From positions 1 through 64,000 of the IMG/VR virus record IMGVR_UViG_3300045284_000330: DNA of 64,000 nt. One strand, 5' to 3'. The DNA comes from a virus. Positions 3,147 to 58,633 of this stretch are shown piece after piece (positions within the stretch are counted from its first letter, which is position 1; each line of letters begins with the position of its first letter). Below the pieces are notes generated by a model. It searched no databases. It was not told the origin of the DNA and saw only the letters and a list, made by a program, of their open reading frames with translations. Both the position numbers and the translations under genes were made by a program.

Positions 3147-3225
3147 GCTAAGCTCCAGCAAAGCTGCGAGCCGCTGAGACGGACAAACATCTCAACGGCT
3201 CTAACCACGGACAAGGGAGTGTCCT

Positions 3226-4012: not shown

Positions 4013-4017
4013 GGGCG

Positions 4018-4685: not shown

Positions 4686-4715
4686 GGCACATCCTACGCA
4701 TCACCCGGCCGCCAC

Positions 4716-5276: not shown

Positions 5277-5290
5277 TGCCGGCTCCTTTC

Positions 5291-5848: not shown

Positions 5849-6258
5849 TGCCTCACACTCAGGCGCCAATACAGTTGCCTGCTGGTGCCTCCGATCTTGG
5901 CTGGCGGCGCAATGATCTTGAGATACCGGCTCACGATCGGCTCACCGCCCGCGTCCATCGCCACGGAGCCGTCCTCATTGAAGATCAGCGCAACGAGGGC
6001 ATCCTTCTCGCTCGGACGCGGCGTCAGCTCTGCCCCGGTATCCGGGCTGATGGCCGAAACCACGGCCTTCATGTCGGCCGGGTTGCTGATGCCGCCGACC
6101 CGCTCCATCGTCGAATACTGCCCGAAGAGGACGAGGATCCAGCGATCGGGAATGCCCTGCTGGCGCAGCAGCGCAAGCTCGCCGTAGCGCGCGATCAGGT
6201 TGTCCCAGATGCTGCGGGACTTATTGACCGGGAATGGCGCGGGTTGCGGCTGCATCAC
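5845..6258 (-). CDS. Putative head-closure protein
   Basis: Position; LIARYGE near N-terminus and YWRLSVRQ C-terminus. Confidence 0.55.
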   Translation of the reverse strand: MMQPQPAPFPVNKSRSIWDNLIARYGELALLRQQGIPDRWILVLFGQYSTMERVGGISNPADMKAVVSAISPDTGAELTPRPSEKDALVALIFNEDGSVAMDAGGEPIVSRYLKIIAPPAKIGGTSRQLYWRLSVRQ

Positions 6259-6635
6259 ATCATCACCGCGCTGTTCACGACCAGGACGGCCGGGAAGTTC
6301 TTGCGCACCAGGCTCAGCCAGCGCTCGCCGTAGATCGTCATCGTAAAATCGATCGGCGAGTTCGGGTCTGGGACCGAATAGGTGACCGACAGGTCCGGCG
6401 TCCGCTCGCTCGACACAAGCTGGCCGGTGCCGGACTCCCCTCGCATGATGGCGACTTGCAGAAGATGGGCCGCATAATAATATAACCCTAAAACTTGATT
6501 GGCGTCATCGACCCAATCGCCGTTGCCGCAGGTGACCACGGCCTCCTCGATCGCAAACTCCACCGAGGCGTCATCGACCGAATCGAACGCCGGCTTGAAC
6601 TTGAATTTGAGATTCGCGGCGGTCGGTACCGTCAC
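6255..6635 (-). CDS. Head-tail adaptor (DUF4054-like)
   Basis: FKPAF...YYAAHLL...LSVTY...TIYGERWLSL. Confidence 0.75.
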   Translation of the reverse strand: MTVPTAANLKFKFKPAFDSVDDASVEFAIEEAVVTCGNGDWVDDANQVLGLYYYAAHLLQVAIMRGESGTGQLVSSERTPDLSVTYSVPDPNSPIDFTMTIYGERWLSLVRKNFPAVLVVNSAVMM

Positions 6636-6991
6636 AGCCGGTTCCTCGTGTCCGTGACCGTCATGATTCCGCAGCTGAGCGTCGAGATATTCCCCGACGC
6701 GTCGACCAGCGTGGCCTCATGGTAGTAATTGCGAAGCAATTCGACGGTATCGCCGCGCTCGATCTGCACGCTGAACGAGGTTGCCGGCGAGCCCACGACC
6801 ACACCTCCATCGAGGGTCGATTTCTCGATCAGCGCGGCCGGCGAGCTGTCGAAATCGGGAATGCCGAATGCTTCCTGATAAGCCCGCCAGTAAATATCGC
6901 CGGCGAGCGGCGCGGCCGCTGGCGCCGTGAGCGGAACGACAGCGTCGTTGCCCGCAGGCACGGAAAAGTTCTGCGCGACCGGCGCGATCAT
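6632..6991 (-). CDS. Small beta-rich virion protein (BppU-like)
   Basis: QNFSVPAGND...YYHEATLVDASGNISTL; coupled to neighbours. Confidence 0.5.
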   Translation of the reverse strand: MIAPVAQNFSVPAGNDAVVPLTAPAAAPLAGDIYWRAYQEAFGIPDFDSSPAALIEKSTLDGGVVVGSPATSFSVQIERGDTVELLRNYYHEATLVDASGNISTLSCGIMTVTDTRNRL

Positions 6992-7296
6992 GGCGTAGCC
7001 GACGGGGCTGCTGCCGCGGCGCCGCTGGCGGTCAGCGTCAGATCCCCTTTGCCGAGATACTCGGCAATGTCGGGACGCAGCGGGACAGCCGTTTTCGTTT
7101 CGCCCGGCCGGATCACCACCTGCTTGCCGAACCAATCGTGCACCACGCGCGGCGCCTTCGGGTTTTTGCTGGTGATGTCATAGGTCTGCGGCTTGACCTC
7201 CTTTGCCTTCTCCGCCATGGCGGAGAGCCTTTCCTCACGCTCGGTCGGCTCGAACATCGGCTCGGGGGGGAGCCTTCTCGTCGGTGTGATCGGCAT
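6988..7296 (-). CDS. Small protein directly after the major capsid gene
   Basis: MPITPTRRLPP...APRVVHDWFGKQVVIRPGETK; SD upstream. Confidence 0.65.
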   Translation of the reverse strand: MPITPTRRLPPEPMFEPTEREERLSAMAEKAKEVKPQTYDITSKNPKAPRVVHDWFGKQVVIRPGETKTAVPLRPDIAEYLGKGDLTLTASGAAAAAPSATP

Positions 7297-7333
7297 GCTT
7301 TTCCCTTCCTGCCTGGCTCTGCTTTCCCGCGCC

Positions 7334-8296
7334 TTATGGGCTGCCGACCCCGCTGATGCCGTCGACATAGCGGACCGCGCCGGTGCGCCGGATTTCGACC
7401 GACCCGACGCGGAAAATGCCGGGGACGTCGAATTGGAGCGCGGACCGCTGGAAGACCGGCAGGAACTGATGCGGCATCGGGACATGGAGCTTGAGAACGC
7501 GAGCGTCGCGGCGATAGACGATCATGCGCCCGCCGCCGTCGGCGCCGGCGGAATCGAGGCCGAGCACGCCGCGGATCGTCAGCGGCCTCCCGGTGTTGAA
7601 CGTGTAGAGGTTGTAACGCGACAAATAGTCGAGCGCGTTCCCATAGGTATTCGGGATTCGAATGTTGGCGAGCTTCTGCATCTCGCCGATCGGGAGCAGC
7701 ACGGTATCCGCCATCTCGACGGTCAAGCTGCCCTCATAGACGCCCGTGAGCGCGTCCTGCACGTCGCCGATGATCTCGTCCGCTGTTTTCACCGACCAGT
7801 GTGACGAGCCTGCGGCCCCGGTCTTTGCGGTGACCACCGCAACGTATGGATTATTGAAAAGCCCGGTGATGCCCTTCGCCGGCGAACCGCGATAGGCGTG
7901 ATTGTCCATGAACATCTCATAGGAGAAATGCGCCGCCTCGGCCTTTTCCCCGGTGAGATTGAGGCCAGGGATCATCATCGCCTGGCCAACCTCCTCGAGG
8001 GTCCAGTTGTACCCGATGCCCGCCATCTCAATGCCCTGCTCGAACTTGTTGCGGTTGATGTCCGCAAAGGGCATGTCGGTCGCGACGTTGCTCAGCCATT
8101 CAGCCTGGCCGACCTTGTCGAGCGAGTAATAGGTGATGGATTTCACCCATGGCCCCCCCGAACTGTCTATAGGTATCAGCTGCTGATAAATAATTTCCGG
8201 ATATTCGATCCGGTAAACTTCCTGCTCGATGTAACTGGTTTGGCTGACCAGGAAGGCCATCGTCTGTTGTGGATTGTCGTAAACATTAAGGCGCAT
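7334..8296 (-). CDS. Major capsid protein (DUF2184 family)
   Basis: FLVSQTSYIEQEVYRIEYPEI...GDVQDALTGV...GSVEIRRTGAVRYVDGI; SD GGGAGG. Confidence 0.9.
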   Translation of the reverse strand: MRLNVYDNPQQTMAFLVSQTSYIEQEVYRIEYPEIIYQQLIPIDSSGGPWVKSITYYSLDKVGQAEWLSNVATDMPFADINRNKFEQGIEMAGIGYNWTLEEVGQAMMIPGLNLTGEKAEAAHFSYEMFMDNHAYRGSPAKGITGLFNNPYVAVVTAKTGAAGSSHWSVKTADEIIGDVQDALTGVYEGSLTVEMADTVLLPIGEMQKLANIRIPNTYGNALDYLSRYNLYTFNTGRPLTIRGVLGLDSAGADGGGRMIVYRRDARVLKLHVPMPHQFLPVFQRSALQFDVPGIFRVGSVEIRRTGAVRYVDGISGVGSP

Positions 8297-8309
8297 CTCG
8301 GCCTCCCCT

Positions 8310-8792
8310 TTACCTGTTGCCGGCGATGTTGCCGATGCGCACGACAGCAAGAACCGGCGCGTTTGCGCTTCCTGCCGCAGTGGTCTGCCACCGCGCGTCC
8401 TCGATGGTCGTGCCGGCCGCGCCGAGCTTTCCGGTGGTGGTGTCGTAGGTCACCGCCGCACCAACCGCGACGCTGCCGTAGCAATTCACCCAGAGGTCGC
8501 CGGTGCAGAGAACGCCGGCGTTGTCGTATTGCGGGTAAACATCCACGGGGAGCCCTTCCACACGGGCAAGCGTCTTGTCGGCACGCGTGACGCCGACAAA
8601 GGCGGTGCCGCCGACAATGCAGCCGGCATCGGACAGGGTGCCCTGGCTGACGGCGAGGCCAAAGCCGATGCCGCCCGCGGTTTCCACGGTCCGGGTATCG
8701 GCCGAAAAGTTGATCTCGCTGGCGAGATCGCCGTTCTGGCCGACCGGCTGATAGCGGTTGTAGGTCGATTGAACAGGAGCTGGTTGCAGCAT
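8310..8792 (-). CDS. Capsid decoration/cement protein
   Basis: IGFGLAVSQG...GDLWV; lies between protease and capsid genes. Confidence 0.75.
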   Translation of the reverse strand: MLQPAPVQSTYNRYQPVGQNGDLASEINFSADTRTVETAGGIGFGLAVSQGTLSDAGCIVGGTAFVGVTRADKTLARVEGLPVDVYPQYDNAGVLCTGDLWVNCYGSVAVGAAVTYDTTTGKLGAAGTTIEDARWQTTAAGSANAPVLAVVRIGNIAGNR

Positions 8793-8820
8793 GTTGGTTT
8801 CCTCTCGGCGCTGCGGCGCC

Positions 8821-10464
8821 TTACGCGCCCGCGCCCGTCTGGGCGTGCGTCGGCTGTTTCCACGCGTTGCTCATTCTGGCGACGTAGTCGGCATAGGCCG
8901 CGTCTCTGAGCGCCCGGGGATCGCTCGCAGCGCCTCCCCCGCGGCCCAGCATCGACAGGCTGTCGGCCAGACGATCCGTGCCGGTGCGCGGCTTGAGATC
9001 CGCCGTCACCGCCTTGAAGGCGCCGATCATCTCCGCGTCGGTGAGCTGCTTGGTGGCGGCATCGCCCAGCTTGGCGCAGACGACCGCGCGCCTGATCTCG
9101 GCGGCCGAGGACTTCGCCGTCAGATCCATCTTGCCCTCCAGCGCCGCGTCGGCCTTGAGGAGCAGATCGATCTTCTCGTTCACCGCGTCGTCGACCTTGG
9201 CGACCGCATCCTCGAGCTGCTTCTTGAGCGCAGTGTTCTCGCCCTTCAGGGCGGCAAACGCGGCATCTTTCTCGCCGCGCTCTTTCTTCTCCCGCTCTTG
9301 CTCCGCCTCGACGTCCTCGTCCTTCTTCTTGGCGTCGGCGAGCTGCTTCGTCAGCGCTGCAAGATGATCGGTGACGTGCTTGGCCGCGAGTTCGGTGGCA
9401 AACTCGATCGTCTGCCCGTCAATGAGCGTCTTCACCAACATTTGGCCGTCTCCTTCATATCCTTCGTCCCCGAGGCGCAATCGCGATCCGCCTCTGGCAG
9501 CGGGGACGACAGCCAGGTGATTTCCGCGTATCGCTGTTTGGATTGCGTCGTAGGCCTCGCCGTCAGGCGTGGTGCCCTTTTCCCACTTCAGCTCGGTGGA
9601 ATAGCCGACCGAAAGCTCCCGCACCCCGTCGCGCTCGTAGGCGCGGATGGCCTTGCCATCCATGATCAACATCGGCACGCGCACGGTGTCGCCGTCGCGG
9701 GTGACCTCATCGCCAATGTGGCCGATGGCGTATTTTTCCCAGTTATTCGAATCGACCATGTCGGGCGGGTGATCGAACGTGATCGGCTTGTGCGCCATGC
9801 TCTGCATCGCCGCCTTCGAGAAAACCTCCTCGGGCGGCCGATAAACTCGCACCACCGCCATATCCGGGACGCCTAGCTCACTGCCCCCATACTCCTGGAT
9901 TCCGGTGCGGGCGATGCGCGCAGAGGCGACGAGATAGCCATCCGCGCTCTTGCGGATTTTGCCGCCATCGACGACAAGCCGGATGCTGTCCCGCATCCGG
10001 CGGCCGTCGGCCACGTCGTCGTCATCATCATCATCGTCATCGTCGTCGGGTGGCCGGCGCCGGTCTTCGAGACTGGCGGGAATTCCGACATAGCCCTCGC
10101 CGGAGCAGGTCGCGCAGACCTCGCCGTCATCGTCCACCCCATCGCCGCCGCAGTCGGGGCACGGGGCGGCATCCTCCATCGCTTCGGCCGGATCGCTGTC
10201 CCAGTTCTCGGGAAGCAGCTCAGTCGCGCCGAGCGCCTTCGCCCGCTTCTTGATCCAGGCCTTGGTCGCCGGCTTGTCCTCGGCGCGGCCGAACGCCTGA
10301 ATGGCCCGTTTCAAATCGGCGCGATTCTCGATCGGGTATGCCCCCGAACCGGGCATCGCCTTGCCCTGCTTCGCGAGCGTCTCGCGCCGGGCCGCGGTGA
10401 ATTCCTTGTCTCGGATTGGTCCCGGAGACTTCATCCGGGATGCTGGCGGCGAGCGCTTGCTCAT
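8821..10464 (-). CDS. Prohead protease/scaffold (DUF2213) with N-terminal extension
   Basis: ARTGIQEY, KPITFDHP, ELSVGY, GNHLAVVPAARGG; coiled-coil C-terminus. Confidence 0.9.
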   Translation of the reverse strand: MSKRSPPASRMKSPGPIRDKEFTAARRETLAKQGKAMPGSGAYPIENRADLKRAIQAFGRAEDKPATKAWIKKRAKALGATELLPENWDSDPAEAMEDAAPCPDCGGDGVDDDGEVCATCSGEGYVGIPASLEDRRRPPDDDDDDDDDDDVADGRRMRDSIRLVVDGGKIRKSADGYLVASARIARTGIQEYGGSELGVPDMAVVRVYRPPEEVFSKAAMQSMAHKPITFDHPPDMVDSNNWEKYAIGHIGDEVTRDGDTVRVPMLIMDGKAIRAYERDGVRELSVGYSTELKWEKGTTPDGEAYDAIQTAIRGNHLAVVPAARGGSRLRLGDEGYEGDGQMLVKTLIDGQTIEFATELAAKHVTDHLAALTKQLADAKKKDEDVEAEQEREKKERGEKDAAFAALKGENTALKKQLEDAVAKVDDAVNEKIDLLLKADAALEGKMDLTAKSSAAEIRRAVVCAKLGDAATKQLTDAEMIGAFKAVTADLKPRTGTDRLADSLSMLGRGGGAASDPRALRDAAYADYVARMSNAWKQPTHAQTGAGA

Positions 10465-18945: not shown

Positions 18946-19024
18946 ACATTTTGGGTGATTGCGCGAAGTCCAATAAAGCCGTGCTTGACAACCGCAGCAG
19001 GCCGCTCGCAGGGTACGACACCAG

Positions 19025-19240
19025 ATGGAGCCCGCGATGACAGAACGAGAAACCGTTGAAATCCTGCGACTAATCGAGGAAACGCGGAAGTTCACGGCCG
19101 AACAGCACAAGCTCATCGCCGAGGCCAGTAAGTTCCGCATGGAGCGATGGCTCAATCCGGTGATCGTCATATTCGGCGGCCTCGGCGCGTTCACCGCGAG
19201 CTGGGCTGCCGTCAGCGCACTCCTGCACATCGCGAAGTAG
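19025..19240 (+). CDS. Small coiled-coil protein with TM segment
   Basis: ILRLIEETRKFTAEQHKLIAEA then hydrophobic segment; operator upstream. Confidence 0.7.
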   Translation: MEPAMTERETVEILRLIEETRKFTAEQHKLIAEASKFRMERWLNPVIVIFGGLGAFTASWAAVSALLHIAK

Positions 19241-19258
19241 GCCTCGGGGAATGATGCA

Positions 19259-19405
19259 ATGGCCACGATGGCCGCGTATGAAACTCGTTTCGCCTCACTG
19301 GAGGTGAAGATGGAGCGCATCGACGGCAGGATCACGCTGATCCAGTGGATGCTGGCGCTATTAATCGGCGGTGTCGCCAGCCTTGTCGTCAAGGCGTTCG
19401 CCTAA
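19259..19405 (+). CDS. 48-aa coiled-coil plus TM microprotein (not in ORF track)
   Basis: MATMAAYETRFASLEVKMERIDGRITLIQWMLALLIGGVASLVVKAFA. Confidence 0.6.
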   Translation: MATMAAYETRFASLEVKMERIDGRITLIQWMLALLIGGVASLVVKAFA

Positions 19406-19957
19406 CCGCGAGGGTTGCAGCGCCGCTGGCCCCACATCAGGCTCTGCCGCGGGCTCTGAGCGAGGGGCACCGCCGCGCGAATTAGCCGCGCTCCCGGCTA
19501 ATTCTTTTCCCAGCCCAACATCGGGCTCGGGCTCTGCCTCGGCAACAAGCTGCGCCTGCTGCGCCTCAAGCTCCAGCACCGGCTTGTCGGCGCCAAACAC
19601 GACCGCCGGCAGCCCGCGCTCCTCAAGCCTCTTGCCCAGCTCGTCGGCGTCGATCGTGACGTTCAGCTCGATCGCGCCGCGTGGCCCCTGCCCCGCCACC
19701 TGCACCGGCAGCAGCCGCATGTACATCGATGTCCAGAACGCATATTCGTTTTCCGGCCGTTCCTTGACCCACGCTAGCAGCCGCTTCACGCCGCCGAGCT
19801 TGGATGCGGTTGTTTCCAGCATTTCCTGGACTTCCCGCGTCACCCGGTTGCGCTGGCCTTTTTTGCGGCCGCCTCGCCTATCGCCGGTTTGGAACTTGGC
19901 GGGTGCCGCCTGGGCTCGCGGGTCTCCTGGTTTGAACCTGCTGGGATTTAGGCTCAT
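19361..19957 (-). CDS. Putative terminase small subunit
   Basis: FKPG...GGRKKGQRNRVTREVQEM...FW...RLLPVQV is typical of P22-like/DUF5681-type TerS. Confidence 0.6.
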   Translation of the reverse strand: MSLNPSRFKPGDPRAQAAPAKFQTGDRRGGRKKGQRNRVTREVQEMLETTASKLGGVKRLLAWVKERPENEYAFWTSMYMRLLPVQVAGQGPRGAIELNVTIDADELGKRLEERGLPAVVFGADKPVLELEAQQAQLVAEAEPEPDVGLGKELAGSAANSRGGAPRSEPAAEPDVGPAALQPSRLGERLDDKAGDTAD

Positions 19958-20019
19958 GGGTGGTCAATCTCCGTCGCAATTTTACTAACTGGTGACTTCC
20001 GCGCAAAACCCCTCCGGGG

Positions 20020-20160
20020 TAGTTTGCGGGATCGCCCCCCCTTTCCCCGCGGGGGGTGCGAACTCCCGCGAACTATGTGGGGGTAGTAGGGGGAGTGTCA
20101 CCCACGGGAGTTCGCAGTAGTTCGCGGGCCGTTCGCGGGCAGTTCGCAGTGAGTTCGCCG
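20020..20160. repeat. Iteron-like AGTTCGC cluster, putative replication origin
   Basis: Five copies at 20109-20158 spaced 10-11 bp; two inverted at 20058 and 20068; directly after the helicase gene. Confidence 0.65.
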
Positions 20161-20166
20161 GTTGCA

Positions 20167-21546
20167 TCATTTCTCCACCTCAACCAAAAACGATCTTTTG
20201 TGTGATTTTGAGCCTTCGGTGTGGACTTTGAGGTGGCCGCTGTTGAAGAGGCGCGTCATGGCGTCGTTGAGCGCCCGCTTTTTGATCCCGGCGTTTTTGG
20301 CTGCGTCCTCTTTTGCGAACAGGCTCGGCGCGTGTTTGTTGCTGCCGTTGTGACTGACGGTTCGCCCCTCGATCGTGAATCGGCGCAACAACGTCATGAA
20401 GACATCATCGGCCTTGGCTGCGGCGGCGACGGCGTCGATCGATCCGGCGACGGGCTCGGGCGCGAAGATTCCGTCGCTCCATCGCAGCACGACGGCGTTG
20501 CCCGCCGGGCCATAGTTATTTTTCACGAACTGGAGCTTGCGCAGTTCGGCGCCGGCCACCTCGTCGTCATCGTCTTCGTCTTTGCTGGTCACGGCTGCGA
20601 GATACATTCGGGCGCGTACGCTGTTGTGCCAGGCGGTCGAGCCGCTCAGTCCGCTTGCGCTCTTGAGCCCGGATAGCGATGGGTGTGACAGCAGGATCAG
20701 CGCGGCGCTGGTGGCCATTGCGAGTCCGCGCAGCAGCGTTATGAATTGCCGTGTTTGCGAGCGGTCGATTTCGTTTCCGGCGAAGACGTCGGCTGCGGTG
20801 TCGATGACGATCAACTTGGGGCGCAGGTTGAGCGCGTCGGTGCGCAGTTGCTCGAACATCGCTGTTGGCTTGACGATTCCGCTACGATCTGGTGCGGCGA
20901 GGATGGCGTCGGCGCCGGCGCGCGAGATCACCCACAGGCCGGCGTCGCGCAGCTCGGCGCGGGTCGTGTCGTAGTGCTCCGCGATCTTTTCCAGGCGTCG
21001 GCAGATTTCGGCGTCGTCCTCCTCGGCTGAGAAGTAGAGCGCCGGGCCGCACTCTGGCAGCATGGTGACCCAGTCTTTTCCGAGCACTGTTGCGGCGCAT
21101 AGCTGCAGGATCAGCAGCGATTTGCCGATCGCGCCATGTCCTGAGAACAGCGTCACGGCGGCGGCTGGGATGCGATCGAGCACCTCCCACGCCCGCACCG
21201 GGATGGGATCGATGGCGATGTTGACATATGTGAAGGGGGGCGGCGTCGGTGCCTTGGCCTCATGCGCCTGGCCGTTTCCATTACCTTTCGTCTCGCTTGC
21301 GCGGATGCCGTCGGCTATTGCCGCTTGCACTGCATCGGCGCTGATTTCATGAACATCGATTGCCAGATCGGAGAGATGATCGATGGCGGCGCTATCGCCG
21401 AAAGGCGCGATCTTTGCGACGCCGTTGCGCAGGGCCATCAGCTTGTTGAGTTCACCGTCCGCCTGGCTCATTGCGAGGTAGGCGGCGGTCATGGCCTTTG
21501 TCACGGCCAGCGGTCGGGTAACGTCCTCTCTGTCATCGTCCCGCAC
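20167..21546 (-). CDS. RepA-type SF4 helicase (AAA_25)
   Basis: Walker A GHGAIGKS, SAEED, LIVIDT, HPS, GSTAW, KNNY. Confidence 0.9.
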   Translation of the reverse strand: MRDDDREDVTRPLAVTKAMTAAYLAMSQADGELNKLMALRNGVAKIAPFGDSAAIDHLSDLAIDVHEISADAVQAAIADGIRASETKGNGNGQAHEAKAPTPPPFTYVNIAIDPIPVRAWEVLDRIPAAAVTLFSGHGAIGKSLLILQLCAATVLGKDWVTMLPECGPALYFSAEEDDAEICRRLEKIAEHYDTTRAELRDAGLWVISRAGADAILAAPDRSGIVKPTAMFEQLRTDALNLRPKLIVIDTAADVFAGNEIDRSQTRQFITLLRGLAMATSAALILLSHPSLSGLKSASGLSGSTAWHNSVRARMYLAAVTSKDEDDDDEVAGAELRKLQFVKNNYGPAGNAVVLRWSDGIFAPEPVAGSIDAVAAAAKADDVFMTLLRRFTIEGRTVSHNGSNKHAPSLFAKEDAAKNAGIKKRALNDAMTRLFNSGHLKVHTEGSKSHKRSFLVEVEK

Positions 21547-24914: not shown

Positions 24915-26198
24915 TCACTCCACTCGCCACACGATGATTTCTCGCGACAGCACGAGGCATTCCCTGTTGGCTTTCGCCCATTCGACCATTTGCGGGTTGC
25001 ACTGCTGGCTTTCGTAAGGGACCGAATAGCGCATTGCGACCGGCAGCTTGATCCTGCGAAGCATGTCGCCGACGTGATCGGTGAACTGCCGCTCTGGCGC
25101 ATTCCACTGCGTGGGCTGGATGATCAGCGCGATGTGCGCGCCATCCGAGAGTTTTTTGCCAAACCCGGAAATGATTCCTGCGAGCGTTTCATTGAACTGC
25201 TCGAGCGGCATGTTGGCGAGGTCGGTAGAGTCCTCGCTGTACTTGCCTTTTGCCTGCCACCAATACGGCGGGTCGAGGTAGACGAGCTTGACGTCTTTCC
25301 ATTGCGGCGGCTTCGGCAGGCCATCGGTGAGATCGTGCTGGCGGATTTCCTTCTCGCGCTCGACGATCGGCTTGCGATCGGAAACCCAATAGCGACGAAA
25401 GCGCTTTCGGCACAGATCGATAGTCGACCCGCCTCCGGCGAACGGGTCCACCACCACATCAAGCGGGTTGGTGTAGAGGTAAAGCAGGTTGTCGAGCCAG
25501 CGCACCTCGCTGTTGCCGAAATGCGTCGATCCCTTGGTTTTCTCCTGCTGTTTCCAAACGTTGTAGATGGGCGGCTCGAAGTCGGTGGCGTGCTCAGCAT
25601 TCGCAAGATTAGATTTGTTCAGATTTGGCAAATCTGCCATTTCCGAACAAAGTCCACTAACGACAGCCTTTGCAACGTTCTCATTCTCGGCGATCTCTTC
25701 CACTGTCCGGCACGCCAGCCACGCTTCGAAGATGCGCTTGTTTCGCGCCTCCTTGGCGTCCTTATCCATGCGTGACAGCCAATCGCGCACGGTGCGCTCG
25801 GAAACCGACAAGATGTGTGCGAGGTGCGCCTTCTTGCCTTCGCGCTCCTTCTCCGGCGTCATGCCGTAAATCTTGCGCGCCATGTTGCGCTTGTCGTCCT
25901 GCGATAACTGCAAGCCGTGCGCCGCATTGCGGTCGATCGCCAACTCCAGAAGCTCGGCGTCGCTCTCGGTTGGCGTGATCTTTGCCTTGATGGTCGCCGC
26001 TTCCATCTTTCGATGTGCGGTCCAGCGATGCCAACCGTCGATCAGCTCATTACGCTGATTGACCTCGATCGGCGGCAGCACGTCGAGGTCCTCGGCATAT
26101 TTCTGAACGGTGACGGCGCTGGTTTCAATGCGCGGATAGAGGTCCTCGCGGAAAACAATGTCGGCCACCGCAATTTCAACGACCGCAAGCATGTCCAT
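24915..26198 (-). CDS. ParB-like domain plus HTH plus DNA methyltransferase fusion
   Basis: PPIEV...LIDGWHR; LSVSERTVRDW; DPFAGGG precedes LDPPY. Confidence 0.85.
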   Translation of the reverse strand: MDMLAVVEIAVADIVFREDLYPRIETSAVTVQKYAEDLDVLPPIEVNQRNELIDGWHRWTAHRKMEAATIKAKITPTESDAELLELAIDRNAAHGLQLSQDDKRNMARKIYGMTPEKEREGKKAHLAHILSVSERTVRDWLSRMDKDAKEARNKRIFEAWLACRTVEEIAENENVAKAVVSGLCSEMADLPNLNKSNLANAEHATDFEPPIYNVWKQQEKTKGSTHFGNSEVRWLDNLLYLYTNPLDVVVDPFAGGGSTIDLCRKRFRRYWVSDRKPIVEREKEIRQHDLTDGLPKPPQWKDVKLVYLDPPYWWQAKGKYSEDSTDLANMPLEQFNETLAGIISGFGKKLSDGAHIALIIQPTQWNAPERQFTDHVGDMLRRIKLPVAMRYSVPYESQQCNPQMVEWAKANRECLVLSREIIVWRVE

Positions 26199-45784: not shown

Positions 45785-47338
45785 TTAACCGGTGGCCCCC
45801 ATTTCCTCGGGATTAGGACTGGGCGGCTCTTGCTTGTCATCCGGCGCCGGCGCCCCGCCGAATCCAATTGGCGCCGCTGGCATCTCCGGCTCCTCGGGCT
45901 CGGCGCCGTATTCGGCGATTGCAGTATCCAGACCAGGATAGGTGGCGTCTTCGACCAGCTGATTGACGACGCCCTCACGGAACGCGTCCTCGTTGATGAG
46001 GCCGATCGTCGAATAAATCTGCGTGGCCTGCGCCTTCTGGTACGCGATCGCCGCCTTCTCCGCCTCGCCCATCTGCCAAAGCGCATTCCATTCATAATGG
46101 ATGTCGGGGTCTGGCCGCCCGAACGCAGACCGCATCATCACCTGATCGAGCATCCCGAGTTTGGGCGCGACCTCGTTCTTCTGCATGTCGACGCAGGCGT
46201 CGTAGTAATTCCGCAGATCGTCCGGACCGCCCGCGGTGCTCCCGCCCTGCATCCCTCGCCCTTGGGCCTGGCCGAACAGGCGGCTCACCGGCATGTCCGC
46301 CGCGGCGGCGACGATGGTTGTGAATTCGTGCAGGATCATCGGCAGGCCACTGTAGTTCGTCTGTACCCGTTGCCATTCCTCCTCCTTGTCGAGGAGCAGC
46401 GCGCTGATGACGCTCTTGGTCTGCGCCGACAAGGTGAACCGCTCCAGCAGCTTGTTTTTGTAGCCGGGCGAGGTCAGGTTAAGCGCCATCTCCGGGATTT
46501 TAACGACGTCCAACTTGCCGTCATTCACGATTGCCGCAATCGACTGCAGGCTGCTCGTGAATCCCATCATCGTATCGACGACGGTCTGCAGAACGCTGTC
46601 GCCCCAGCCGCCTCCCATTGGGGCCAGCCGCCAATCTGGCAGTTCATTGCCTGCGTATTCGAGCACGCGGCTCGGATGAATCTGCGTCATGCCGATGCCG
46701 ATGGTCGGGATCGTCTGCAGCTGCTGCCCCTGCTGTCGTCCAAACGGGATAACGTTGCGGAACCCTCCCGCCTTCGGTGCCGCCGGCGGCGCAGGCGCAG
46801 GCGCCGTGGCGCCTGCCTCGCCCTCGAAGCCGAACATCGGCGTCGCCACCGTGTAATAGGCAGGCCGCGTGTAATAAGGGTCCATCACGTTGTAGATCCG
46901 CGGGCCCGCGTTCAGCTCATAGCGATTGAGCACCACAACGTATTTGAGGCAGCCCCGCCCGCACTTCTCCAGATTGAGCGGCTGACTCGGGTCATTGCCG
47001 TCATCCACGCCGACGATCAGCGCGGCTCCGCCATAAAGCCGCGCCCGGGTGATCCACTGCTTCACCTTGCGCTGCAGGTCCATCGTCTTTTCGATGGTCT
47101 CCAGCGCCTCGATCTGACTTTGCGACGCTTGCCACGCACGCCACTCGCGCGTCACATCCTCGGCCGGAGCATCGCAAATTTTTCGCGCCAGCCAGTCTCC
47201 GCGATACATATTCTCAAGCTGATTGCGATCGAGCAGAGTGAAGTCGTATTGAACGCTCCGGCTCGGATCGAGCCCAGGCGTGCCGAGGCCCGTCACGAAA
47301 TTTTTCAGCGTGTCGCGGACAGTTGTGTAGTAGCTCAT
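45785..47338 (-). CDS. Portal protein (DUF1073)
   Basis: YRGDWLARKICDAPAED.TREW, ARLYGG, PVSRLFG, DLRNYYD. Confidence 0.92.
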   Translation of the reverse strand: MSYYTTVRDTLKNFVTGLGTPGLDPSRSVQYDFTLLDRNQLENMYRGDWLARKICDAPAEDVTREWRAWQASQSQIEALETIEKTMDLQRKVKQWITRARLYGGAALIVGVDDGNDPSQPLNLEKCGRGCLKYVVVLNRYELNAGPRIYNVMDPYYTRPAYYTVATPMFGFEGEAGATAPAPAPPAAPKAGGFRNVIPFGRQQGQQLQTIPTIGIGMTQIHPSRVLEYAGNELPDWRLAPMGGGWGDSVLQTVVDTMMGFTSSLQSIAAIVNDGKLDVVKIPEMALNLTSPGYKNKLLERFTLSAQTKSVISALLLDKEEEWQRVQTNYSGLPMILHEFTTIVAAAADMPVSRLFGQAQGRGMQGGSTAGGPDDLRNYYDACVDMQKNEVAPKLGMLDQVMMRSAFGRPDPDIHYEWNALWQMGEAEKAAIAYQKAQATQIYSTIGLINEDAFREGVVNQLVEDATYPGLDTAIAEYGAEPEEPEMPAAPIGFGGAPAPDDKQEPPSPNPEEMGATG

Positions 47339-51380: not shown

Positions 51381-51809
51381 TTATCCTCCTGATGCTTTCA
51401 GCATTTCACGACCCTTGTCGAAAAGGGCCTTCGGTAGTTTTCCACTCTTTACTGCCTCGCGGCGCCCCGCGCGGTCCGACTTGCGAAACAATTCACGGCA
51501 ATCGAACCGCTGGCATACATGTGGGGCGCGCCCGTGAATACTGCATCCGTTGGCTGTAAGATAGATACAATCGCCGTTGGGCCGCCGTTTTAGCGCGCGG
51601 CCAAGGCGCGTACCGTCGCGCTTCGTAATCCACGCCCAGTCATATTGCTCGTACTCCTCCTGCGCCAAGGGAACAATCAGAGTTCGGCAGCACAGCGTGC
51701 ACAAGCCGCACGGCACGTCGGATCGCCTGTCGTCCTTATCGACGAGATGTGTCGGCCGTAAATCAGGCAGACGCGCGACGCTCGGAATGTCCTGCTTCAT
51801 TTCTGCCAT
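51381..51809 (-). CDS. YkgJ/CxxCxxCC cysteine-cluster protein
   Basis: CGLCTLCC...DCIYL...CSIHGRAPHVCQRFDC. Confidence 0.85.
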   Translation of the reverse strand: MAEMKQDIPSVARLPDLRPTHLVDKDDRRSDVPCGLCTLCCRTLIVPLAQEEYEQYDWAWITKRDGTRLGRALKRRPNGDCIYLTANGCSIHGRAPHVCQRFDCRELFRKSDRAGRREAVKSGKLPKALFDKGREMLKASGG

Positions 51810-54022
51810 TATCTAACTCGTCGAGCACTGATATAGCCGGTCGCGGTGCACGTGCTGTTGAATGTGCCCTGCGCTGCGAGGTAGACGGTCGCCGGCGCAC
51901 TCACATTGACGCGCGTCGGACCAGTTTGCATCGTTTGCGTGACGCCATTGCCAAAGGTCAAACGATACTGAGTCATATTTCCATTGCCAGCACAAATCTG
52001 CGCAGCAGTCGGCAACGCCGCGGAAGTATTCGAAACTGCCGCCGCAAGCGCGGTTGGTCCCTGCGCCGGGCTGAAGATAACAACACCAGCCACCACCCAA
52101 TCGCCCGGAGTCAACGCCAGCGTCGCGACGTTCGCCGTGACGTTCGTGGTGAGATTGACGGGCGTCGTCTGGCTGGTGGCGAGCTGCTCACCCAGATTAC
52201 CCGCCACAGCATTGTCGGCCGCAACCGTGCCCTTGATCGCCTGCCGCGAAGTGTCGCTCGGATGGACGTGATCGCCTCGGGCCCAGGCTGTGGCGGTGCC
52301 GGCGGCGGCCGTCCCGTCCATGGCGGGGGCAGCACTGGACGCAGGAGGAAGCACCGCATTGACTTGCGCCGCCGTCTGGTAGCCGGCCGGGTTGCTAGCC
52401 GCGTAACGTGAGGTATCGGTCGGGTGAACGTGGTCGGACCTTGCCCATGTTGCCGCCACGCCACCCGCACCGACGCCGTCCATTTGCGGCACGGCGTTCG
52501 ATCCTGCCGGCGTGCTCGGCACGTAAATCTTGTTGTCGCTGCCCAGGGTGGCGGTGTTCCCTGCGTCAGCCGAGACCGCTGTCGGACCTGGAGTACCTTG
52601 AGGGCCTTGCGGGCCCTGTGACCCTGGTGGTCCCTGCAGACCGGTCGCCCCGTTCGCTCCGGTGTTGCCTGCCGGACCCTGGATTCCTGGGGTACCCTGG
52701 GGCCCCTGCAAGCCTTGTGGACCCACATCACCTTGAAGGCCTTGTGGCCCTTGGATTCCTGGGGTGCCGGCTGGGCCTTGGGGACCGTCGTTGCCTTGAT
52801 GGCCTTGGGGACCTGGAGGTCCTACGGGACCGGCTGGGCCTTGCTGCCCCTGGGACACTATCCCCAGGATGATGTTCATCCCGTTGGTGAGGGTACCGGC
52901 ACCCGCCTTCCAGGCGATCGGGACCTGGACGTACTCTGGTGAAGCGGGTGGCGCAAATGCCGAATTCGTGACGGTGTAGGAGTAGTAGACGGCCGCGCTG
53001 TCAGCGTTCTGCAGGAGGATTTCGTTGCCTGACTGGATCAGCCCCAGGATGACGCTGATGTCGGTGCCCGCACCGTCCAGGTTGCTGATGTAGAGGTTGG
53101 CTGCGCTCGCGGGGGTCGCATTATCTAGTTCAACCGTGCCAGCCGCAACTGGCGGGACCGTGGTGCTGGTCGAGAAAGCGTAGTTGAAGATGCTGCTGGT
53201 ATTGCCTTGAGGACCTTGTTGACCTTGCGGTCCGGCAGCTCCTTGGGGGCCGGGTGCGCCGTCCGCACCGGCCGGACCTTGGGGCCCCACATCACCTTGG
53301 AGACCTTGTGGCCCCTGAATACCCTGTGGTCCGGCTGGGCCTTGCTGGCCGTCGTTGCCGGCTGGTCCTTGGGGACCGGCCGGTCCGGCCAAGCCGGGTG
53401 ATCCGGCCTGACCGCCTGGACCGGGATCGCCTTGCGGACCTTGGGAACCTTCGGCTCCCGCTGGCCCCTGCGGGCCCTGTGTGCCCTGCGGACCTAAGTC
53501 CCCTTGCGGGCCAACCGCGCCTTGCGGGCCAGGATCGCCTTTTTGGCCTGCAGGTCCGGCCGCTCCCGGAACACCTGATGCACCGTCAACTCCGGCATTT
53601 CCTTGGGGACCGGCAGGCCCGGGAACGCCTTGCGGACCTGCAGGGCCGGCCGGACCTTGAGGACCCGGTGGGCCTTGGATTCCTCCGCCACCACTATCGG
53701 CAATTGGCTGCCAGCTTGCATTCTTTCGTCCATACATCGCTCCATCTTGCGGGGCCTCGGTAACCACTTCGTCCACCGGCACGATAGGCGTCCACGCCCC
53801 ATCAAGACGCGCGTGCGTGTCGCCATCTGATGGAGCGTCGGGAATGCCAGGAGTGCCTGGCGGACCTTGGGGACCAGCTGGCCCGGGCGGGCCCGGCGGA
53901 CCTTGTATGCCTGCACTGCCGCTGCCGATTCGCGCCCACACCTTGTCGAATTCGGAGTCGATCTGCTTCAGGGCCAGGCCGGGATCGAGGACGGTTGCAG
54001 GTTGGAATATGGTGGTGGTCAT
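51809..54022 (-). CDS. Collagen-like fibre protein
   Basis: Long Gly-X-Y runs; DAPSDG/EAPQDG; WARxDHVHP repeats. Confidence 0.9.
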
Positions 54023-54024
54023 AA

Positions 54025-55554
54025 TCAGGACACCCAGCTCATGTCAGACGGGTATCGATATCTGCTCGCGATCTTGTTGAACGCGCCGGAACTCGCATCA
54101 ATCTGGTCCTTGTATTTTCCGACCGGGAAATGTTCGGCCTCTTCGAGATAATTTTTCACCCATACACCCACGACCAGCCGCACATTGCCGCCCTGCCACT
54201 GCGCAGCGAACGGCTCGGCGCGCATCTCCTTTGCGCCGCGCACCCGATCGGCCTCGACGCGGAAGCCGGCGAGATTTCTGACCGTGGATTCCGCGCTCTC
54301 TTTGCCCCCGCTACCCGGCTCCTGCTCAACCCAGACCTTGGTCAGGAAATACTTTCTGCGATCCATCTCGGCGGTCTGCTTGATGATCCGCTCGCGGTCT
54401 AGCGCCGACCATTGCCCGCGCCTCACGTCAGCCACGACAAACGTGTCGTCGCGCATCCGCAGCATCAGGACGCCGGCGGTGTAAGCTCCGCCGCCGGCGG
54501 TGCCGCTCTTGTCCCAGTAGCGCACCGCGGCGACGACGCTCGCAGATGGCGGCGCCTCCGATATGATCGAGGCCATGTGGATCGGGAACATGTCGCCGCC
54601 GACGACAATGGGCGCCTGCTGGTAGACGCTCTGCCAGCCGGCCAATGTCATCATGGCGCGCTGCTGCTCGAGAAATTCCGCCGACTTGAGTTCCGGGAAA
54701 AGCGGTTCGCCCACCTTGCGCACAAACGGCCCGATCGGGCGCCCCACCTCATCAATGGCCGTATGTGTCTCCTCCTCTTCGGCCAGCGCCGCATAGCGGC
54801 ATACGCGCACATCCTTATGGCGCTCGATCAGCCGGCCCGCAGGATCGTCTAGATGCCATCGAGTCATCACGAGCAGCAGCGCGGCGCCGTCGGAGAAACG
54901 CGTCATGAAATCGTCGGTCATCCAATTCCATGTCTTGTCGCGGGTGAGCTTCGAGCTCGCCTCGGCACGGCCTTTGATGGGATCATCAATGACGCCCAAG
55001 TCCAGTCCCTCGCCTGTCACCGCACCTGCGATCGTGGTGTTGCGAAAAGACCCGCGCTCCAGGCCCGTTCCGTGAAACTCGATCATTTCGCTATTGGAGC
55101 GACGAACAGACGGGTTGACCGCCTGGTGCCCGAATATCTTGGCGTGCTTGGGATCGGCGAGAATGCGCTGCAGTCGAAGGTTCGCGCGAATGCCGAGCCG
55201 CTCGCTGAAAGACGCGAAGATGATTTTCAGTTGTGGGTCCGGCCCGCTCAAGCCGATGATCCACGAGAGGAAGTCTACGACTTGGGTGCTTTTCCCCAAT
55301 TGTGGAGGCGACTGCAGCAGGAGTTTTGGCCGGCGCCCGGCGCTATAGTCCAGCCAAAAGCGGTGCAATTCGAGCGCAACCTCGCGCTGCCACCATCCCA
55401 TGATCATGCGCGGATTGAGATAGCGGCGATACGCCCAGAAGGATTCGCGCGACTCGCGCTGGGCCTGCTGCTCCATGAGCCACAGGTCCTCCTCGGTGTA
55501 GGGGCGCGACGCTGGGACGTTGATGTTCACGAACATCACCACATCGGCGCGCAT
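54025..55554 (-). CDS. terL: Terminase large subunit
   Basis: [38 protein letters not shown]. Confidence 0.95.
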
Positions 55555-55591: not shown

Positions 55592-58500
55592 TCACGCGCT
55601 GCGTAGGAAGGCTTCATCCGGCTTACCGAAAATCTCCGCCGTCCAGCCCGACATGCTGCGAAAATGCGGGGCAATCTCGTTCTTGTATCTGATCCAACTC
55701 GGGCGGAATGCAATCGCCGATTGCCACTTTTGCCCGCGGATATAGTGCGCGCCGTCCACGGTCATCGGCACCCCGACACCGATCACCTTCTGATGCCCCT
55801 CCCGCCGCGCCACCTGAACGGCAAACAGCCCCGAGCTGCCGCCCCAGTCCAGCCCGGTATCGTGGGTGATCTCTGGGGCTTTGCGGTGCGCCCAGACCTG
55901 TTCCGGCTCCGGCAGCCCAGCCTTGCGCCGGCCGTTCAGCCAGGCGATGGGCCCCACAAGCTTGTCGGGATGCAGCGTGACCGCGACGCATTCATCAGGG
56001 AAAGTCTTGATCTGGTCGTTTATGGCAAACACGCGGAAGGGCAGATCGCCGATCAACTTCCTGGCCGCCTCCCAATCCTGCCTCCAGCACATGGCGCCGC
56101 CGAGCACGACCGCCACCGTCGCCGTGGGTGCATGGGGTGGTGGCGCACTCGGCAAACTCGGCAAACTGGACAAATCACCGGCTTTGCGCGCCTCGAACGT
56201 GCATGACTCGATCTGGTTGAAGTGATCCCCAATGACCCGGCCGTGCCCCTCGACGCCACGGAGCGCCGGGTCCTCCGATAGCCCAGACTCGCATGCCAGT
56301 ACATCGTCGAAGCCCGCGAAGTAGAGCGTGTCGCGCAGGAGCTGCGCGTTCCATGCGCATTCATGGCCATGAGCGTAGATGATCGCACTCATGGCGCCAC
56401 GCTTGTTGGGCCCGAGCTTCTGCCACTTGGTCGTAAAGCGGTGGTAGTCAGCGTCATCACATGCGGCGATCTGCTCCAGACTCGGCACAGTCACCCGAAG
56501 AACCCCGCCCGGCGCCAGGACCCTGTGGGCCTCCTGGAAGAAGCCGATCGCCGCTTTGTAAGGAACGTGCTCCACGCAATGCTCGATATTGACGTGACTC
56601 ACGCTGCCGTCCGGCCACGGCAACTTTTTGGTGATATCCACGTCAGCGTCGCGGTTCTCCCAACCAGCGAGCTTGTTGGTACCGCAGCCAAGATTTAGTT
56701 TGATGAGTATCGAGGCGCGCTCTTGCACCAGCTCATTGGGCTTCATGCGTTCCACGGCAAGCGCGGCCTCGACGAATTTTCTATACACACCTTGCTGCGC
56801 ACTGTCATGTTGGTGCGTCACCCAGTCTAGATCGAGATCGAGAATGTTGTCCTTGGTAATCTGGTTTTTGTCGGCCCGCTGCGCCTTCCACTGCATGATC
56901 TTCAGCCGGCATCCGTCCTTGGCCAGGATCTGCTGCCGAATGTAGCGCTCCGGTGTCGGCGCGACCTTCCGGTTCGGCCAATCATAGCGTTGAACGAAAT
57001 CGCTGCGCCGAAGGTAATCCGTCGAAAAGAACATGAGCCCGGTCTCAACCCAGAGCTTTTCATGCTCCTTGTGTTTCATCCCCTTCACATCGGTGGTTGC
57101 GCAATCGGCCTTCTCCTGCTGCATCCACCTGATGATGTCCCCCACGCAGAGCCGGAACAAGCTGTCGCCCTCTATATGCGCGACGTGCTCGTAACCCAGC
57201 TCGCAGGCGATCTCTAATCCCTTGCAAAAGGCCCGGCCCCAGCCGTCACGCCCCTCCGTCACGCCCTTGCGGCTGAGGTGGCCGATGTTGTCCGGAAAAT
57301 TGAAGACCATCCGGCGGTGTCGCTTGCCGTCATAAGGCGTCCAGTCCTCGAACTTCTTGATTGGCGACTGGCTGTCGACGGCGAGGAAATCGCAATCTCG
57401 TTCATTTAACGAGAAATGCAGCCGCTTCCACAGGTCCGTGAGATTGTCACGATCCGGGCTGTCCACATAGAACGTTCCGAACAACAGGGTGCTGCGCCTG
57501 GCCGCGAACGCCGTCACCGCTGCCAGCGCCTTCGGCACATCGATCGCCTTGTCGCAGCGGTGCTTGTTGCTGTGACAGTCGCATGGATTGAGAACGTCGA
57601 TCGGGAGCGTGGGGGCGAGGTGCGCGCCGACCCGCTGGGTCGTCCGATAGCTCTCGCGGCCGCCGTACACCACGATCAGCGGCGTCCCCACGGCCTGCGC
57701 CAGGACCGGCGCAAAGCCAGCGTTGCAGTAGACGAGGTCAGCTTCGGAAAACAGCGCCGCCATTTCCTCGAATGCCAGCTCCCCGTTGTGTAGCTTCAGG
57801 TCGGCCTCCTGCTCGGGCCCCTCGATCCACTCCTCGCCACGGCGCAGATCGGCGATGCTCACGACGTAGAACGAGTCCCGGATCGACCGAAAGATGGCGT
57901 CATAGGCCGCGGGGTCTGGATTGCGTGACCGGCCATCCCATTCCCGGCGCACCACGATCGGCCGGTGCACCATGAGCCGCTTGCCGCCCATATCGATCCG
58001 GCTCAGTCGATCGCGGGTCGATTGTCGCCATTCCGGCTTGATCGGCAGGCTGAAGTCAGGCCGCTCCGGCATTTGCAGACCGACGCATCCGAACATCGCC
58101 TCGAGGATCGAGCCGTGCTGATCGACAAGCGTCTTTGGATAGCCGATGCGTGCGACCCTCGCCGACGGCGGCGCCGCCGTAAACTTGGCCTGTTCGAATA
58201 GCCCCCGCTCCCGCTCAATGGTCTTTGCCTGCGCATGCAGCGAGGTGGGCCGCATCACCAGCTTGAGACCTTTGGCGACGAGGTCGTGATAAATCTGAAA
58301 GTGGCAGGTATGGAGCCAGACATCATAATCGCGCATCAGCACCCGCATCACCGCCCGCTGATGCAGATTGTCGCCGATACCGAAATGCCCGGTCACCGAG
58401 ATGCATGGCCTTGCCTGCTCTGGCGTCACTTTTGGAGGGAGCGGCTGCGGATGGGCGTGACGCTCGAACGTCGCTTCCTTCACCACGAGGTCGTTGCGCG

Positions 58501-58633
58501 CCAACAGCCGATCGACCGTGCCCTGATCGAGGTCGGCATATTTCATCGCGCCGGGAGCGAGATTGATCTCCCGATTGCGCGAGTCATAAAAAATGCGCGC
58601 CGCGCCAGCCGTGTTTTGCACAGCATAGATCAT
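55592..58633 (-). CDS. 1013-aa polyprotein: small N-domain, GT9-like GT-B, GT-A-like, SAM methyltransferase, Maf/MptE-like domain
   Basis: GIGDNL...LAQAVGTPLIVVYGG; AVDSQSP...HIEGDSL; LNLGCG...EHCVEH...LAPGG; VVLGGA...AIN...GSSGLFA. Confidence 0.8.
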   Translation of the reverse strand: MIYAVQNTAGAARIFYDSRNREINLAPGAMKYADLDQGTVDRLLARNDLVVKEATFERHAHPQPLPPKVTPEQARPCISVTGHFGIGDNLHQRAVMRVLMRDYDVWLHTCHFQIYHDLVAKGLKLVMRPTSLHAQAKTIERERGLFEQAKFTAAPPSARVARIGYPKTLVDQHGSILEAMFGCVGLQMPERPDFSLPIKPEWRQSTRDRLSRIDMGGKRLMVHRPIVVRREWDGRSRNPDPAAYDAIFRSIRDSFYVVSIADLRRGEEWIEGPEQEADLKLHNGELAFEEMAALFSEADLVYCNAGFAPVLAQAVGTPLIVVYGGRESYRTTQRVGAHLAPTLPIDVLNPCDCHSNKHRCDKAIDVPKALAAVTAFAARRSTLLFGTFYVDSPDRDNLTDLWKRLHFSLNERDCDFLAVDSQSPIKKFEDWTPYDGKRHRRMVFNFPDNIGHLSRKGVTEGRDGWGRAFCKGLEIACELGYEHVAHIEGDSLFRLCVGDIIRWMQQEKADCATTDVKGMKHKEHEKLWVETGLMFFSTDYLRRSDFVQRYDWPNRKVAPTPERYIRQQILAKDGCRLKIMQWKAQRADKNQITKDNILDLDLDWVTHQHDSAQQGVYRKFVEAALAVERMKPNELVQERASILIKLNLGCGTNKLAGWENRDADVDITKKLPWPDGSVSHVNIEHCVEHVPYKAAIGFFQEAHRVLAPGGVLRVTVPSLEQIAACDDADYHRFTTKWQKLGPNKRGAMSAIIYAHGHECAWNAQLLRDTLYFAGFDDVLACESGLSEDPALRGVEGHGRVIGDHFNQIESCTFEARKAGDLSSLPSLPSAPPPHAPTATVAVVLGGAMCWRQDWEAARKLIGDLPFRVFAINDQIKTFPDECVAVTLHPDKLVGPIAWLNGRRKAGLPEPEQVWAHRKAPEITHDTGLDWGGSSGLFAVQVARREGHQKVIGVGVPMTVDGAHYIRGQKWQSAIAFRPSWIRYKNEIAPHFRSMSGWTAEIFGKPDEAFLRSA

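Follow-up and report, generated by a model that had tools for sequence, protein, structure and literature searches.

A multidomain phage enzyme that shares a small domain with a capsid-adjacent protein: a candidate for virion glycosylation

How might a soluble enzyme made by a phage locate a viral substrate? The question is raised by a gene in a 64,000-nucleotide stretch of viral DNA (the window), which comprises bases 1-64000 of the 74,156-bp IMG/VR record IMGVR_UViG_3300045284_000330. The record is rated complete by CheckV, carries a 65-bp terminal repeat with the appearance of a circular assembly overlap, and represents an uncultured temperate siphovirus with a G+C content of about 62%. On its minus strand, at 55592..58633, an uninterrupted open reading frame (ORF) encodes a protein of 1013 residues (P0001), in which four predicted catalytic domains follow a small N-terminal domain, hereafter called the tag. 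Our findings show that the tag is homologous to a small protein encoded next to the capsid gene, that both co-occur strictly with one type of capsid, and that relatives of the enzyme are encoded within the virion modules of other phages. On the basis of sequence and predicted structure, we favor, with moderate confidence, the view that this phage glycosylates its own particle, most likely the head.

The N-terminal tag and its paralogue beside the capsid gene

The tag comprises residues 1-56 of the enzyme (58466..58633, minus strand). It has a beta-beta-beta-beta-alpha-beta topology and a consensus of roughly YDIxNPTxxxRVIYD...IxIxPGETKxxVxL...DLxL, and R13 and P27 are invariant across the family. 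A Pro-rich linker, pointed out already in an earlier note on this sequence and disordered in the structural model, tethers it to the rest of the enzyme (residues 57-73; 58415-58465, minus strand). The same note had matched the N-terminus by eye to the C-terminal half of the 6988..7296 product, a protein of 102 residues encoded on the minus strand directly after the capsid gene. This match reflects real homology and is stronger than was claimed: residues 37-92 of the small protein (7021-7188) form a paralogue of the tag, which is followed by an Ala/Ser/Pro tail. In the profile-profile comparison that the note had suggested, a profile of residues 1-60 derived from a 52-sequence alignment was aligned by hhalign with a profile of the post-capsid protein and seven homologues, giving a probability of 97.1% and an E value of 6.6e-11 over 53 columns, versus E values of 0.16-0.74 for reversed and 10 column-shuffled controls. 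Consistently, when a hidden Markov model (HMM) was built from the N-termini of the enzymes only, the post-capsid ORF was the sole other match in the six-frame translated genome (E value 6e-9), and the corresponding ORF of a diverged relative (63% capsid identity) was matched at an E value of 5e-18. In the opposite direction, an HMM made from the eight small proteins alone matched the enzyme weakly in this genome (E value 1.5) and at an E value of 1.9e-5 in a relative. The caution expressed earlier about a weak pairwise alignment was fair, because BLASTP finds no alignment between the two small domains.

The domain follows the capsid type. Exactly two copies are present in each of 10 complete related genomes (this phage and G001-G009), one at the N-terminus of the enzyme and the other in an ORF of 95-139 residues directly downstream of the capsid gene, which in the window encodes a major capsid protein of the PF09950 type (7334..8350, minus strand; Pfam E value 6.7e-78; PHROG 264). 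The small gene likewise sits directly after the capsid gene in a partial eleventh record (L078). For scanning small-protein loci, a 40-sequence alignment proved too diverse to use; a narrower alignment gave a single locus, the gene right after the capsid gene. Among records with untagged enzymes, copies of the domain were found in none of five, and the PF09950 capsid was missing from the same five (positive control 5/5), which have another type of capsid; in most of them, the head-decoration gene immediately precedes that of the enzyme. Tag, small protein and PF09950 capsid are thus found together in 10/10 complete relatives and are all absent from the five untagged records, which bears out the tie between tag and capsid suggested in the earlier note. 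Two cultured phages, Pam3 and RHph_I65, have the same set of capsid, scaffold and cement genes and no such enzyme nearby, and the domain is absent from their capsid regions; the known decoration in these phages is the cement protein, not a small protein with the tag domain.

How far has the domain spread? Its profile identified 247 clusters at an E value of at most 1e-3 among 1.84 billion representative proteins. Most of them are stand-alone proteins of 75-170 residues that consist of the domain and a Pro-rich, often basic tail. Others are fusions through Pro-rich linkers to a GT-B glycosyltransferase domain alone, to a Maf-like domain alone, to both of these, or to other probable transferases; yet others carry different domains of about 300 residues, one of which has a weak GT9 lead. 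Judged by this sequence distribution, the tag is a mobile module. Two tandem copies stand at the N-terminus in P0105 and P0130, and an unrelated domain of about 300 residues without Pfam or PHROG match follows the tag in P0130 and P0213. A sequence search of the PDB with the tag profile returned nothing below an E value of 0.07, and in the ESM Atlas the domain resembled only unnamed small viral proteins (0.87-0.88), which serves as a lead only.

Four predicted catalytic modules in one soluble chain

The ORF had been described previously as a single gene of the late operon, located just upstream of terL and encoding four enzymatic domains. It is indeed one ORF without internal stop; it overlaps the stop of the upstream 82-residue gene by 4 nt, and terL (terminase large subunit; 54025..55554, minus strand; Pfam Terminase_6N/6C, PHROG 38) starts 37 nt downstream. 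The assignment to a late operon holds insofar as the gene is the last of the tail block and stands next to terL, but it is located about 47 kb (in window coordinates) from the capsid gene. All four domains are found at the positions proposed, and their fold assignments are supported by structure searches and Pfam. An AlphaFold2 model based on 52 full-length homologues, over which we also counted residue conservation, shows five confident domains (mean predicted local distance difference test score, pLDDT, 87.5), with further disordered linkers at residues 629-640 and 826-837. The enzyme is a soluble protein: it has no membrane-spanning segment, the maximum Kyte-Doolittle mean over 19 residues being 1.55.

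The first catalytic domain has a GT-B fold (residues 74-378; 57500..58414, minus strand) and matches PHROG 6804 over residues 80-365 (E value 1.4e-33). Its closest structural matches (residues 74-381) are the autotransporter heptosyltransferase TibC (4rap; Z 19.2, root-mean-square deviation 2.8 over 255 residues) and a Veillonella GT9 protein (3tov; Z 19.2), followed by WaaF (Z 17.9) and WaaC (Z 16.6). Altogether it superposes on GT9 enzymes over 254-275 residues with Z scores of 16.6-19.2, and Foldseek matches it to 1psw at an E value of 3.8e-8. The domain is GT9-like by fold and not a GT9 member by sequence, because its score against Pfam PF01075 remains under the cut-off. The motif G85-I-G87-D88, invariant in 52/52 homologues, sits at the start of the aligned range (model residue 74 is aligned with residue 95 of TibC). 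In WaaC, the catalytic Asp of the N-terminal Gly-Asp motif is D13. At the end of the C-terminal lobe, a cluster C351-x-C353-H354-x3-H358-x-C360 (57554-57583) is conserved in 46-52 of the 52 homologues and is predicted to bind, probably, a metal.

A GT-A domain follows (residues 380-628; 56750..57496, minus strand). Its model (residues 379-630) matches more than 30 GT-A enzymes at Z scores of 13-15.5, including WrtF (15.5), SpsA (15.0), TarP (15.0) and PBCV-1 A64R (2p6w; 14.0), and D420 is invariant. The earlier note had remarked on EGD in place of the canonical DxD. This peculiarity is essentially fixed in the family, E488 and G489 being present in 52/52 and D490 in 51/52 homologues. We consider it likely to be an ExD variant of DxD, because it follows a hydrophobic strand and is essentially invariant. 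The enzyme has no match to Pfam GT2, and one relative scores 13.2 bits, under the cut-off. The third domain, a class I S-adenosylmethionine (SAM) methyltransferase (residues 641-825; 56159..56713, minus strand; PHROG 6636), is the only part of the enzyme that exceeds a Pfam threshold (Methyltransf_11, PF08241; 28.1 bits versus a cut-off of 21.2), and 42/43 relatives match the same family. Its G649-C-G651 motif is invariant, and its model (residues 640-819) matches this fold at Z 12.6.

The C-terminal domain (residues 838-1013; 55595..56122, minus strand) was modeled separately with a pLDDT of 96.6. Only four structures match it above Z 8: Maf (5mu5; Z 11.3, 163 residues), SteA (10.8), the Campylobacter alpha-2,3-sialyltransferase 2p56 (10.6) and MptE (8sd5; 9.5). 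These align over 134-163 residues, and the next match falls to Z 7.5. The likeness to Maf, CstII (GT42) and MptE is one of fold level only, and the nonulosonate cap raised in the earlier note is accordingly no more than a possibility. In sequence, the domain is homologous to PHROG 4603 ('alpha-2,3-sialyltransferase'), which forms an N-terminal extension of the related enzymes from rhizobial prophages (hhalign probability 88.7%, E value 2.5e-6); a second link to PHROG 4603 runs through P0156.

Near-invariant motifs of catalytic type are thus present across the 52 homologues (GIGD88, D420, E488-G-D490 and G649-C-G651), a pattern consistent with the modules being active enzymes, as predicted from sequence. 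More than 170 homologues with the core unit of GT-B, GT-A and methyltransferase domains were found in metagenomes, many of them on contigs of 72-80 kb, and 73 of the best 120 homologues of the core unit carry the tag. The modules are duplicated, split, inserted or rearranged in related viral contigs (L027, L043, L044, L046), the variants being a second set of GT-A and methyltransferase domains, an inserted Methyltransf_24 or two tandem GT-B domains; in P0056, the methyltransferase precedes the GT-A domain. This suggests a shuffling of modules among relatives, which would diversify the structures of the glycans.

The likely substrate

What might such an enzyme modify? A first clue comes from the location of its relatives, which agrees with the virion context proposed in the earlier note. 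Unrelated phages encode untagged relatives and single-domain homologues within their head or head-tail modules. The enzyme lacks the tag in Mesorhizobium and Bradyrhizobium chromosomes and matching proviruses, and some of these rhizobial-type enzymes (about 15 of the best 120 homologues) have the PHROG 4603 'sialyltransferase' domain at their N-terminus. Their gene is flanked by the capsid genes and by those for the head-tail connectors, and at seven loci its immediate predecessor is the head-decoration gene of an HK97-type head module. In D3-like Pseudomonas phages, the genes for a stand-alone homologue of the GT-B domain and for a methyltransferase have head-closure genes on one side and tail genes on the other, and Paracoccus phage Pkon1 encodes a homologue of the C-terminal domain right after the capsid gene. 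Glycosylation of the particle, and probably of its head, is the most economical reading, because the enzymes are soluble, late and encoded in virion modules across several lineages. Among the closest structural matches are TibC (Z 19.2) and Maf (Z 11.3), both of which glycosylate proteins directly.

How might the enzyme reach the head? The tag can be regarded as an address, because an enzyme encoded far from the head genes carries a domain whose only paralogue adjoins the capsid gene. We envision a scenario whereby four catalytic modules on flexible linkers, namely a GT9/TibC-like GT-B, a GT-A, a SAM methyltransferase and a Maf/CstII-like transferase, would act within one soluble late protein and, working in the cytoplasm with nucleotide sugars of the host, would assemble a short methylated oligosaccharide and add its cap. 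The N-terminal 56 residues would then serve as a non-catalytic, tethered targeting module. Conceivably, the enzyme and the small protein both bind the same site on the PF09950-type capsid; alternatively, the two domains might bind each other, so that the small capsid-associated protein would be an adaptor or the acceptor itself. Either way, the enzyme would be brought to the assembling head. The tag may hence bind the shell, bind the small protein or mark the acceptor; docking, acceptor protein, sugars and reaction order are what we infer here. A more specific and more tentative proposal, which we consider quite possible, is that the domain of about 55 residues is a previously undescribed capsid-targeting module that was captured repeatedly by different glycosyltransferases, that tethers a glycan assembly line to the assembling head, and that defines a family of small capsid-adjacent proteins, namely the 247 clusters.

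Several observations weigh against particle glycosylation directed by the tag. All relatives are uncultured. In this phage, the gene is not located beside the head genes and ends the block of tail genes. GT9 and GT-A folds also serve the synthesis of lipopolysaccharide (LPS) and of polysaccharides, and the fold scores do not separate TibC (19.2) from WaaF (17.9) or 3tov (19.2). In Pfam, the GT-B domain misses the gathering score of PF01075 (13.4 bits versus 22, E value 0.048), as do its relatives. The enzyme has no hit to the MptE-like family PF01973, for which relatives score 22.1 bits versus a cut-off of 34.6, and one of 43 relatives reaches a sub-threshold E value of 9.7e-4. No obvious conserved Ser/Thr acceptor patch was identified, and the small protein has a variable tail, in many cases Pro-rich and basic and not rich in Ser/Thr. 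Within one genome, the two domain copies show no excess similarity (0.293 versus 0.285; permutation p 0.27), and there is therefore no signal of co-evolution that would indicate direct contact. Finally, three records (L049, L052 and L053), all of them fragments, contain enzymes without the tag at the same tail-end position.

Alternatively, the enzyme might modify a glycan of the host surface, such as exopolysaccharide, O-antigen or the core of LPS, in lysogens or at a late stage of infection. The classical function of GT9 relatives is that of LPS heptosyltransferases (WaaC and WaaF, Z 16.6-17.9), and the structural matches of the GT-A domain include the wall-teichoic-acid enzymes TarP and TarS as well as polysaccharide synthases. 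This phage is temperate and has an integrase, and phage transferases are well known to cause seroconversion. Such a modification could block superinfection or keep progeny off debris, and the N-terminal domain would serve oligomerization or regulation. However, the enzyme contains neither a membrane segment nor a domain related to lipid carriers, and its gene is located among the late virion genes, away from the integrase and immunity region. Relatives are found inside the head modules of at least three unrelated types of phage, and the tag recurs in a capsid-adjacent gene and is tied to one type of capsid. We thus regard modification of the host surface as unlikely.

Might the glycan be attached to another part of the virion, with the tag recognizing a target other than the shell? 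The tail tube, the tail fibers and a collagen-like fiber encoded after terL come to mind. In this group of phages the gene closes the tail and fiber block, the major tail protein has an Ig-like domain, and mycobacteriophages reportedly glycosylate their tail-tube as well as their capsid subunits. The only paralogue of the tag, however, is encoded right after the capsid gene, and the tag co-varies with the type of capsid, which makes another virion target distinctly unlikely. The collagen-like fiber was rejected as an acceptor of the BclA type because its repeats are GPQ/GPA; glycosylated BclA has Thr-rich GXT repeats.

A further alternative treats the N-terminal domain as a signal for packaging into the head interior, such that the enzyme and the small basic-tailed protein would enter the next cell along with the DNA, and the enzyme would exert its activity there at an early stage. 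The small gene indeed lies beside the capsid and scaffold genes, and many stand-alone members of the family end in a Pro-rich spacer and a Lys/Arg-rich tail, which possibly binds DNA. But passage through a siphovirus tail would be unusual for a folded five-domain enzyme of 110 kDa, the untagged relatives have their enzymes in head modules without such a signal, and we found no evidence of protease sites; we hold this alternative to be very unlikely. Least probable of all, and very unlikely as well, is the building of glycans on modified bases of the phage DNA, as T4 glucosyltransferases do on hydroxymethylated bases and as other phage glycosyltransferases reportedly do with diverse glycans (Pyle et al. 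2024, cited in PMC12619734): it is disfavored because the complete genome has no gene of the thymidylate-synthase/hydroxymethylase family (PF00303; control positive in 10/14 genomes), and, moreover, the gene belongs to the virion module, a capsid-adjacent protein has the same tag and the closest folds are transferases directed at proteins or glycans.

Known systems, sugar supply and gene order

Is there a precedent for glycosylation of a viral head by a multidomain enzyme of the virus itself? In the literature searched, mycobacteriophages are the only phages for which particle glycosylation is described, and chloroviruses the only viruses with described multidomain enzymes for capsid glycans; no paper was found on the present enzyme family or on the tag. 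Chlorovirus PBCV-1 encodes multidomain enzymes, A064R and A111/114R, that build the glycans of its capsid protein; A064R is a chain of two glycosyltransferases and a methyltransferase that acts on these glycans (PMC7826918). Both A064R and the phage enzyme are single soluble viral chains of glycosyltransferases and a methyltransferase, the latter directed at the terminal sugar in A064R. A064R works in the cytoplasm, independently of the host glycosylation organelles, as we propose for the phage enzyme. The GT-A domain of the phage enzyme superposes on domain 1 of A064R (2p6w; Z 14.0, 191 residues), no better than on many other GT-A enzymes. Unlike the phage enzyme, which belongs to a temperate siphovirus, A064R stems from a eukaryotic giant virus, has three modules and neither a GT9-like nor a Maf-like one, and has no known targeting domain in common with a gene of the capsid operon. 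Its function is proven, whereas that of the phage enzyme is predicted.

As described in PMC12363180, mycobacteriophage virions are glycosylated by phage enzymes (Che8 gp110, Corndog gp38, Myrna; Freeman et al. 2023), and the glycans shield the virions from antibodies. As here, phage-encoded transferases are placed with virion genes; in those tailed phages, capsid proteins are glycosylated. The mycobacteriophage enzymes are encoded by separate single-domain genes in actinobacteriophages, and neither a fusion nor a Maf-like module or docking tag has been reported for them.

TibC/AAH (4rap), a GT9-type autotransporter heptosyltransferase of the BAHT group, glycosylates protein directly; it forms a dodecamer, uses D110 as catalytic base and has an iron finger made of Cys339, Cys342, Cys358 and Cys370 (PMC4358343). 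It is the best structural match of the GT-B domain, with WaaF and 3tov about as good. Like TibC, the phage enzyme has an N-terminal beta domain. Its putative metal site may correspond to the Cys-based finger near the end of the C-terminal lobe of TibC, and D88 in its N-terminal G-D motif may correspond to D110. The TibC barrel, however, has 97 residues and packs on the catalytic domain, whereas the 56-residue domain of the phage enzyme is held on a disordered linker, and the TibC finger is of the Cys4 type, whereas the phage cluster, CxCHx3HxC, has a different spacing at a comparable place. The parallel in metal finger and Asp is a lead, not a sign of membership. As for the C-terminal domain, all of its top structural matches have the fold of Maf, CstI and CstII (MptE-like/DUF115). 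The substrate of Maf enzymes, which are flagellin nonulosonic-acid glycosyltransferases, is a protein that assembles by itself into a large structure; the phage domain of 176 residues corresponds to the core only, without the flanking flagellin-binding domains of Maf.

If the domain does prove to be a capsid-targeting module that tethers these enzymes to the head, tailed phages would for the first time be known to mark a virion-modifying enzyme with an address label, and virion glycosylation would for the first time be known from phages of Gram-negative (alphaproteobacterial-type) hosts. With a second, unrelated set of enzymes, glycosylation of the particle would turn out to be widespread in tailed phages. 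The present set forms one fused chain, whose modules are shuffled in order and number, and it occurs in numerous soil and rhizobial-type phages and prophages. The tag that enzyme and small protein have in common suggests a testable mechanism by which a soluble enzyme might locate its viral substrate, and it could serve as a small portable module for sending cargo to capsids. Variation of the modules bears on phage-host recognition, on particle stability and on the immunogenicity of therapeutic phages.

Which sugars might be used? Two families for an ADP-heptose-type supply were sought, and no SIS/GmhA-like or HldE-like gene was found in this genome. Pieces of such a supply are present in 3/11 related records, both types in G010 and an HldE-type match only in G004 and G007. 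In G010, a SIS/GmhA-like gene and a 469-residue HldE-like gene lie at 19013-20855; in G004, a cytidylyltransferase-like gene (25474-25839) is located about 2 kb from the enzyme gene.

The remaining virion genes frame the locus. On the minus strand, the circular order is scaffold/protease (8821..10464), cement-like gene, capsid, small 102-residue gene, connectors, tail tube, tape measure, six large tail genes, the 82-residue gene, the 1013-residue enzyme ORF, terL, collagen fiber, lysis and portal. Integrase and RecE-like exonuclease genes were identified, as were genes for the tape measure, the major tail protein with its Ig-like domain, the portal (45785..47338) and an endolysin. A region of early and lysogeny genes of about 33 kb (10500-43700) splits the virion genes into two parts, 1-10464 and 43731-64000, with terL, fiber, lysis, portal and a minor head gene on one side and scaffold, cement, capsid and tail genes on the other; in the relative L078, the genes from portal through capsid are contiguous. 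The collagen-repeat (GPQ/GPA) protein, which resembles a tail fiber and has 737 residues (51809-54022, minus strand), is encoded directly after terL, and this position between terL and the lysis and portal genes is unusual for a fiber gene.

A DNA-level search against cultured phages gave no match to this phage. Its capsid is 46% identical to the major capsid protein of phage Pam3, the closest cultured capsid matches being at about 45-46%, and the true start of the capsid ORF is probably slightly downstream of the listed TTG. The gene at 8310..8792 (minus strand; PHROG 563) encodes a probable capsid cement/decoration protein with 33% identity to the annotated cement protein of Pam3. The gene that follows the small post-capsid gene encodes 120 residues without family match (6632-6994, minus strand); the ORF listed as 6632..7135 begins too early, and the ATG at 6994 overlaps the stop of the small gene.

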